The position numbers and the translations under genes were made by a program. From assembly GCA_964016885.1 (NCBI GenBank), contig OZ024742.1:263500001-263564000 (forward strand): DNA of 64,000 nt. The letters run 5' to 3'. The notes under the pieces were generated by a model, which was given only the letters and a program-made list of their open reading frames with translations, had not been told where the DNA came from and made no database searches. This document shows, piece by piece, positions 486-676 of the stretch. Each line of letters begins with the position of its first letter. The first letter of the stretch is position 1. This stretch comes from Eledone cirrhosa. Its lineage: Eukaryota.

Positions 486-676
486 AGATCAAAAGATGGT
501 TAAAAGAGTTCCAAGTATTTTATTATGCGCATTTCAAAAACAAATATCATCATGGGATATCTGCGTTTTCATCCCTATTTTATCTGATGAAAACGCAGAT
601 ATCATCCCATGATGATATTTGTTTTTGAAATGCGCATAATAAAATACTTGGAACTCTTTTAACCATCTTTTGATCT
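486..676. mobile_element. Fold-back (palindromic) hammerhead element inserted in (TA)n
   Basis: Arms 486-573 and 586-676 are reverse complements apart from a 3-nt indel; long (TA)n on both sides. Confidence 0.9.
576..646 (+). ncRNA. Minimal type I hammerhead ribozyme motif (family C)
   Basis: TATTTTAT-CTGATGA-[AAACGCAGATATCATC ccat GATGATATTTGTTTTT]-GAAA-TGCGCA-TA-ATAAAATA. Perfect 8-bp stem I, long stem II, palindromic stem III ATGCGCAT, AUA cleavage triplet. Confidence 0.85.

Follow-up and report, generated by a model that had tools for sequence, protein, structure and literature searches.

Hammerhead motifs in an Eledone cirrhosa locus as probable terminal-repeat ribozymes of Hydra-clade Penelope-like elements, present there as truncated fold-back copies

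The closest described counterparts of the motifs analyzed here are the type I hammerhead ribozymes located in the terminal repeats (pLTRs) of metazoan Penelope-like retroelements (PLEs; Cervera and de la Pena 2014, PMC4209133). In these ribozymes, helix III is small and palindromic and helix II is larger than usual; the published model, accompanied by low activity in vitro, holds that they cleave as dimers (PMC4209133, PMC6765202, PMC3088659). The copies are mostly truncated and include opposite-strand pairs 100-700 bp apart (PMC4209133, PMC6765202). The Hydra clade of PLEs, which includes Hydra-1_Obim of Octopus bimaculoides, is characterized by the conserved protein motifs RW and DKT, CxCx5C in the linker, CxxC and CxH, by (TA)n targets, and by a hammerhead near the 3' end, with U preceding GAAA in many families (PMC8557442); a Hydra family with a hammerhead from O. 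bimaculoides appears in the supplement of the same paper. For cephalopods, 235 Rfam hammerheads have been reported (PMC6962438), and in the accessible text of that paper and of a second one (PMC13282606) Penelope elements are mentioned without being linked to hammerheads. How PLEs choose the start of reverse transcription and what role the hammerhead plays have so far been addressed in vitro for one element.

These properties, from the type I architecture, the pLTR location and the dimer proposal to the opposite-strand pairs, the mostly truncated copies and the Hydra-clade protein and target traits, recur in a family of hammerhead motifs (family C) present at three loci of the window, i.e., the whole 64,000-nt stretch of Eledone cirrhosa DNA analyzed here. 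We put at roughly 80% the probability that the three motifs are terminal-repeat hammerheads of Hydra-clade PLEs that cleave slowly or conditionally, as dimers or with the aid of a protein, and that the copies in the window are truncated fold-backs predicted to be inactive. That the motifs are hammerheads of PLE pLTRs we consider very likely.

A descriptor scan for hammerhead parts on both strands of the window and a covariance model built from 15 representatives, partly including the window motifs themselves, identified the same five complete motifs. Three of these are located on the plus strand, namely, at 576..646 (subfamily F1a; AUA triplet, predicted cut after 638), 37349..37414 (F2; predicted cut after 37406) and 42931..42997 (F3; predicted cut after 42989). 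The first consists of stem I (576-583/639-646), the core (584-590), stem II (591-626), GAAA (627-630) and a palindromic 8-mer (630-637). The remaining two, second copies of F2 (37138..37203) and F3 (42755..42821), are located on the minus strand within inverted arms, and the covariance model also matched, in part, a cut-off hammerhead on the minus strand at 524-573, inside the left arm of the 576 locus. An earlier note on this DNA had overlooked these two complete copies and the cut-off one, as well as the inverted-repeat layout of each locus. At all three plus-strand loci, the descriptor scan bore out what the note says of stem I (8 bp), the two cores, the 6-nt insert and the AUA triplet, and the two G's of the 37349 motif indeed pair as G-U in stem I. 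The motifs carry the CUGANGA and GAAA cores, an NUH cleavage site and a three-way junction open at stem I. No Rfam hammerhead family was among the 11 matches (E up to 10) for 571-680, or among 150 of the 182 matches listed for the window, and this AUA-triplet, long-stem-II hammerhead variant that Rfam misses appears to be new, as do the two fixed end points of the copies and the hairpin described below.

The long stem II hairpin claimed for each locus is strong at 576 (z -6.2) and 37349 (z -3.0) but weak at 42931 (z -1.1). The stem II sequences, previously regarded as unrelated, instead follow a homologous layout in 15/15 representatives: a purine opposite U at the first position, 3 bp, an unpaired fourth position (C·C in 12, C·U in 2 and A·C in 1), and then a helix of at least 6 bp. 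The G10.1-C11.1 closing pair, which is highly conserved in the previously described pLTR hammerheads along with an extra base after A9 (PMC4209133), is absent from all 15 representatives, where a purine faces U11.1 (A-U in 11, G-U in 4, never G-C); natural exceptions to the G10.1-C11.1 pair exist (PMC3088659). The helices differ in length as well, with an 8-bp stem I here versus a helix I of 4-5 bp, and 3 bp plus a C·Y loop plus 6-12 bp in stem II versus a helix II of 7-8 bp (PMC4209133). In the Hydra hammerheads listed in PMC8557442, the U of the cut triplet is preceded by G, stem II has 3-7 bp, and stem III has 3-4 bp with a 1-3 nt loop, whereas family C has AUA, the long two-part stem II and an 8-nt palindrome. 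Stem III is not loop-less, as had been stated, given that the monomer forms 2 bp with a 4-nt palindromic loop; the insert itself is palindromic at the three loci, although at 42931 solely through G-U pairs.

Covariation was assessed on the 15 representatives, which were picked by hand from 225 distinct matches and are mutually related, using search patterns in which the cores, the purine/pyrimidine order within the insert and a large part of stem I were fixed. In this set, 96.7% of 270 cells pair, and 12/18 pairs vary on both sides. None of 500 shuffles, a control that ignores relatedness, reached the observed covariation, and slid partners paired in 31-60%. As the earlier note anticipated, and with kinship uncorrected, stem II covaries (5 of the 6 tested pairs two-sided) and so does stem I (5/8 pairs, four of them through single sequences); a single representative, F9, accounts for most of the two-sided changes in stem I. 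One stem I pair is A-U in 6 representatives, G-U in 4, G-C in 4 and unpaired in 1, and the palindrome pairs of stem III also vary on both sides. Between F1b, F2 and F3, the 150 nt upstream of the ribozyme cannot be aligned, whereas stem I, the cores and stem III are near-identical in sequence; the ribozyme is thus an island kept in both fold and sequence. Hence, the suggestion that structure was selected rather than sequence stands for stem II and for the stem I pair that passes through A-U, G-U and G-C, where selection on the fold is apparent, but not for stem I, the cores and stem III in general, which are kept in sequence as well. In the source elements, selection thus acts on how the motif folds. 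Stem II exceeds the length that the usual geometry of a tertiary contact between loops 1 and 2 allows, and the C·Y loop is only a candidate for such a contact.

In F2 and F5, judging from the flanks in L062, stem I may extend by at least 10 pairs past an internal loop, an extension that is not clear in F1 and F3. A-to-I editing was considered as the source of the A-U to G-U to G-C drift and rejected: singletons display no sense-strand excess of A>G, with A>G versus T>C counts of 39 vs 34 in F2, 23 vs 52 in F1b and 7 vs 20 in F3.

Rather than being independent ribozyme genes, the three loci are PLE insertions, truncated and folded back, where according to prediction the ribozyme does not fold. 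Each has two arms in head-to-head inverted orientation and is located within a (TA)n tract or next to one. At the 576 locus, the right arm (571..678, plus strand) is a 5'-truncated pLTR copy that ends at the first end site and runs into (TA)n; it recurs with 100% identity over 110 nt at 25 or more other places and is ~90% identical to the pLTR of the full-length element L097. The left arm (485..573, minus strand) is an inverted pLTR copy that is cut off inside the core and lacks a complete hammerhead, and the two arms overlap by 3 nt (571-573). The description of this motif as the best preserved was not borne out: it retains only 5 nt of native 5' flank, and an exact 35-nt probe of its stem II region has 1,039 matches in the genome. 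The fold-back F2 insertion (37007..37455) is located between (TA)n tracts and is 99.6% identical to L062 over 280 nt; its minus-strand arm bears an extra tail reaching the second end site. The fold-back F3 insertion (42617..43040), likewise with the tail on the minus-strand arm, has (TA)n at the left side only, the right end at 43040 running into non-TA sequence. PLE insertions are known to take the form of head-to-head units in which one arm bears a tail (PMC3846280). As in those insertions, an inverted 5'-shortened pLTR lies beside a direct one with a short junction overlap and a tail on a single end only, but in the window copies the gene is wholly absent (PMC3846280). At the three loci, the predicted energy of the fold-back hairpin is lower than that of the hammerhead by 76, 97 and 103 kcal/mol. 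In a read-through transcript, the mirror arm is predicted to pair with the whole ribozyme and block it, an outcome that a transcript begun at the palindrome center would escape. The folding predictions suggest that the three window copies are likely dead, folded-back, 5'-truncated stumps. Other long palindromes, without the CUGANGA core, are found at ~780-1085, 44488-44873 and 50573-50656, and are possibly fold-back stumps of other elements.

Full-length elements elsewhere in the genome link the motifs to PLE genes. In L062, a 750-codon open frame lies between direct F2 motifs spaced 3,856 nt apart, and the 37349-37414 motif is identical in both pLTRs; in L097, a 775-codon frame lies between F1b motifs at a distance of 3,940 nt; and in L117, F3 motifs separated by 4,436 nt enclose a broken PLE frame. 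No intact ORF of the 576 subfamily (F1a) was found, and 11/20 stretches fetched around its stem II bear pieces 66-94% identical to the protein of F1b, to which F1a is ~80% identical across the pLTR region. The proteins of the hammerhead subfamilies are 47-60% identical, with 47% between F2 and F1b. The best fold match of the F2 protein model (pLDDT 90) is telomerase reverse transcriptase (RT; E 1.5e-9, with a TM-score of only 0.30 over the whole chain). A single ORF with a telomerase-like RT, direct pLTRs, inverted truncated copies and a tail, as expected of PLEs, were thus all found.

Among 79 aligned proteins, the Hydra-clade columns conserved in at least 90% are R37 W38, D118 K119 T120, C601 C603 C609, C699 C702 and C726 H728; the third RWK residue is variable, and L062 has Y in place of H728. 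Residues Y622, Y635, G637, R646, E705 and N717 are invariant in this alignment and would fit the GIY-YIG endonuclease motif. A C-terminal endonuclease can be deduced provisionally from these conserved residues; Pfam detected no domain in the PLE proteins, GIY-YIG included, and a sequence search of solved structures yielded nothing significant. Insertion into (TA)n agrees with the Hydra clade, apart from the window end at 43040. The units of 3.86-4.4 kb do not fit the clade size, which is generally below 3 kb: published Hydra families stay under 3 kb, compared with 3.9-4.4 kb for family C (PMC8557442). The conserved columns, together with the (TA)n targets, suggest that the parent elements are Hydra-clade PLEs. 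A second Hydra-type PLE (family D; L247 1242-3900 and L141-L154) is 2.5-2.6 kb long and carries a hammerhead of the published type; the protein search returned 58,151 first-look candidates, not all of which belong to family D.

The 20-nt 3' half of the motif has 81,483 matches in the 3.0-Gb genome, to be read as pattern matches rather than verified whole ribozymes, versus 8 for the reversed pattern, so that the motif is not due to chance. A further 1,584 matches come from a variant in which the second 3' position of stem I is C, and an exact probe for the 42931 subfamily has 4,049. For the 37349 region, 41 of 48 among the matches listed cover the whole query at 100% identity, indicating that this subfamily is young. 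A looser core pattern (180,210 matches vs 6,519 for the control) was dropped as a count, most of the 30 loci inspected being other repeats. Very high copy numbers of type I hammerheads are likewise found in animal non-LTR retrozymes, and with 126,247 in axolotl, the count here is no record (PMC7229834). Different subfamilies often adjoin within one (TA)n tract (L024, L042, L063, L066, L121 and L256), as expected from shared targeting. Named homologues from Argonauta hians point to an octopod host.

The 3' ends of the copies cluster at two sites. In 171 copies, drawn from the best matches and patterns and not at random, 94 end ~50 nt 3' of the cut site and 68 at 130-150 nt (162/171 at one of the two), 5 read through, and 4 end elsewhere or could not be anchored. 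Because the copies end 3' of the cut site, the reverse-transcribed RNA spans an intact cut site, either uncut or re-joined. In F1, F2 and F3, each end is followed within ~0-10 nt by RCUC, 10-20 variable nt and GAGY-GC, the exact junction being blurred by TA-like bases; a '+1' class at F2 site 1 proved to be an artefact of mismatch tolerance through such bases and was not used. In the window, this hairpin motif, in the form ACUC…GAGU-GC, is found just 3' of the first end site at 37068..37089 (minus strand) and 42674..42700 (minus strand, locus L041), as a candidate RT start signal. The 84 hairpin motifs in 221 downstream stretches all close with Watson-Crick pairs (A-U at site 1, 79; G-C at site 2, 5), and two motifs per 200 nt were seen in 0/20,000 shuffles in any of three references. 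In 30 loci chosen by the second hairpin alone, a PLE gene start lies downstream in 28, and a hammerhead or its 3' half is located 140-160 nt upstream in 23; read-through junctions of this kind have 783 matches in the genome.

Family D, with ~33% protein identity and not used to define the motif, has the hairpin 4-8 nt past the first end in 7/12 copies, the others ending before it (3) or carrying mutated versions (2). At its second end, the exact hairpin is absent in 3/3 read-through copies, and a similar motif lies ~100 nt beyond, near the gene start. Among the eight end sites looked at, two for each of F1, F2, F3 and D, the hairpin is therefore present at seven, and as a candidate start signal it fits only in part. 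We regard the chances that it sets the start site of reverse transcription as evenly balanced; it may instead act at the DNA level or in translation.

A close parallel is Poseidon of Anolis carolinensis (Frangieh et al. 2024, PMC11167929), which likewise has two fixed 3' ends downstream of the hammerhead, a tail corresponding to the stretch between these ends, AT-rich targets and a template spanning the uncut ribozyme. For the anole PLE, internal initiation by the RT and the use of uncut RNA have been demonstrated, as has cleavage that requires the protein and is dispensable for insertion (PMC11167929). Poseidon belongs to a different clade, however, and its starts are located inside the ORF, compared with the 5' UTR here; the tail is ~85-100 nt here (~60 in family D) versus the usual 30-40; and the accessible text describes no duplicated hairpin for it (PMC11167929). 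Within the texts covered by a search of the literature, no paper describes the hammerhead variant or the hairpin, although the variant may have been described before.

Whether the ribozyme acts as a monomer or as a dimer was addressed by folding predictions. Forming stem III in the monomer, with its A-U and U-A pairs, requires +4.7 kcal/mol, and five element contexts all give it a predicted probability of 0.0, with 0.0-0.36 for stem I. For the 576-646 dimer, the minimum-energy fold is the double hammerhead (-41.1 vs -29.6 kcal/mol for two monomers). In F2 and F3, the double hammerhead is more favorable than two monomers, by 4.0 and 1.4 kcal/mol, yet another dimer is lower still in energy (-17.8 for the double hammerhead vs -19.3 in F2, and -21.6 vs -29.8 in F3), and pairing between two 8-mers is weak (-3.2 and -2.2). 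Inserts are self-complementary, with G-U allowed, in 218/225 matches, although 9/16 of the inserts allowed by the pattern, which fixes their purine/pyrimidine order, pair by construction. Dimer or protein-assisted cleavage probably prevails over fast cutting of the monomer. A small palindromic stem III with dimer cleavage is the published model for PLE hammerheads, and the dimer idea is accordingly in print already, not new here (PMC4209133, PMC6765202). Since a 2-bp helix III with a tetraloop has been likened to that of invertebrate ribozymes that cut well alone (PMC7229834), dependence on the dimer is likely but not shown.

An efficient monomer, in which the 8-bp stem I and the C·Y loop of stem II make a new tertiary contact that offsets the 2-bp stem III, leaving the palindrome incidental, appears unlikely. 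Such a contact would predict the observed retention of the unpaired fourth position in 15/15 representatives and the conserved sequence of stem I, and active invertebrate ribozymes do have helices III of 2 bp plus a tetraloop (PMC7229834). Nevertheless, stem III here is built of A-U and U-A pairs at a predicted probability of 0.0, the palindrome pairs vary on both sides, and genomic copies span the intact cut site, so that fast cleavage would require efficient re-joining.

Somewhat less probable still is that the fold persists chiefly because it binds protein or serves in packaging within the PLE ribonucleoprotein, with cleavage vestigial or dispensable. The absence of the usual G10.1-C11.1 pair from all 15 representatives is compatible with such a role, as are the anole PLE, where catalytic mutations did not impair insertion in vitro (PMC11167929), and the Naiad PLEs, which spread without canonical hammerheads (PMC8557442). 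Against it, the NUH site and all bases of the catalytic core stay the same among subfamilies whose proteins are 47-60% identical, an invariance for which the search pattern itself partly accounts. It is very improbable that the short units belong to a retrozyme or palindromic MITE-like family that is non-autonomous and spreads in this form: copies are mostly short and non-coding, an inverted partner lies within 1.4 kb upstream in 66/154 copies of a non-random sample, and animal retrozymes have been proposed to derive from pLTRs (bioRxiv 10.64898/2026.07.22.740005), but a direct copy within the same distance, as head-to-tail units would require, was found in only 10/154, palindrome centers vary from copy to copy, and each subfamily has its own ORF-bearing element. 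Animal non-LTR retrozymes form head-to-tail tandem units of 150-450 nt (PMC7229834), whereas here the pieces are solo or inverted pLTRs; second partial matches near copies, considered as signs of a tandem retrozyme, proved to be inverted arms.

Conditional cleavage within a Hydra-clade PLE, the preferred reading, would fit the following cycle. The transcript would start in the upstream pLTR, and the protein would nick (TA)n DNA and begin reverse transcription at an internal position of the RNA, either ~50 or 130-150 nt 3' of the cut site, each of these two sites possibly being set by the small hairpin just 3' of it. Copying would proceed back through the uncut or re-joined hammerhead, and most events would stop early and switch strand, leaving head-to-head stumps such as those at the three window loci. 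The 2-bp stem III, unstable alone, would become an 8-bp duplex when two copies meet, and the likely job of the ribozyme would be to trim or circularize RNA of unit length, at a late stage or in just a minority of the molecules.

A bolder version, to which we lend less than even odds, would combine several claims. The tail would be the distance between two hairpins (RCUC, 10-20 nt, GAGY-GCU) bound by the RT; the Hydra-clade RT would start a few bases 5' of the hairpin, in the manner of telomerase on its template; and the family C hammerhead would be a distinct sub-type, in which the C·Y loop and the AU-rich stem I establish a new contact, either tertiary or with a protein. A hairpin beside the start sites, in families down to 33% protein identity, points to direct mutants for testing, and a near-identical young family with an open gene would allow in vitro tests of both the hairpin and the hammerhead sub-type. 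This RT start-site hairpin, the more useful part, falls outside the coordinates of the earlier note, while the hammerhead itself adds a large variant, with real covariation, to those of PLEs.

Further hammerhead-like cores of other families are present in the window at 36375-36429 and 42271-42313 (plus strand) and at 34739-34782 and 62247-62287 (minus strand), the first three with a stem I of 6-8 bp; none matched the family C covariance model. Elsewhere, L040 (2991-3051) and L106 carry a hammerhead with a GC-rich stem I, yet with the same two-part stem II and AUA site, for which a parent element was not found. The window also contains an open frame of 7,446 codons (3974-26314, minus strand) with an 84-nt repeat region near 16500-18100, in which Pfam reported no family at E 0.001. 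In L061, a 381-codon frame (8222-9364) appears to resemble a PIF1-type helicase of Helitrons. Finally, in F1 (638-643) and F3 the predicted cut site falls within an AAUAAA hexamer, which in F2 is found a few bases further on; this may be due to chance in such AU-rich sequence.
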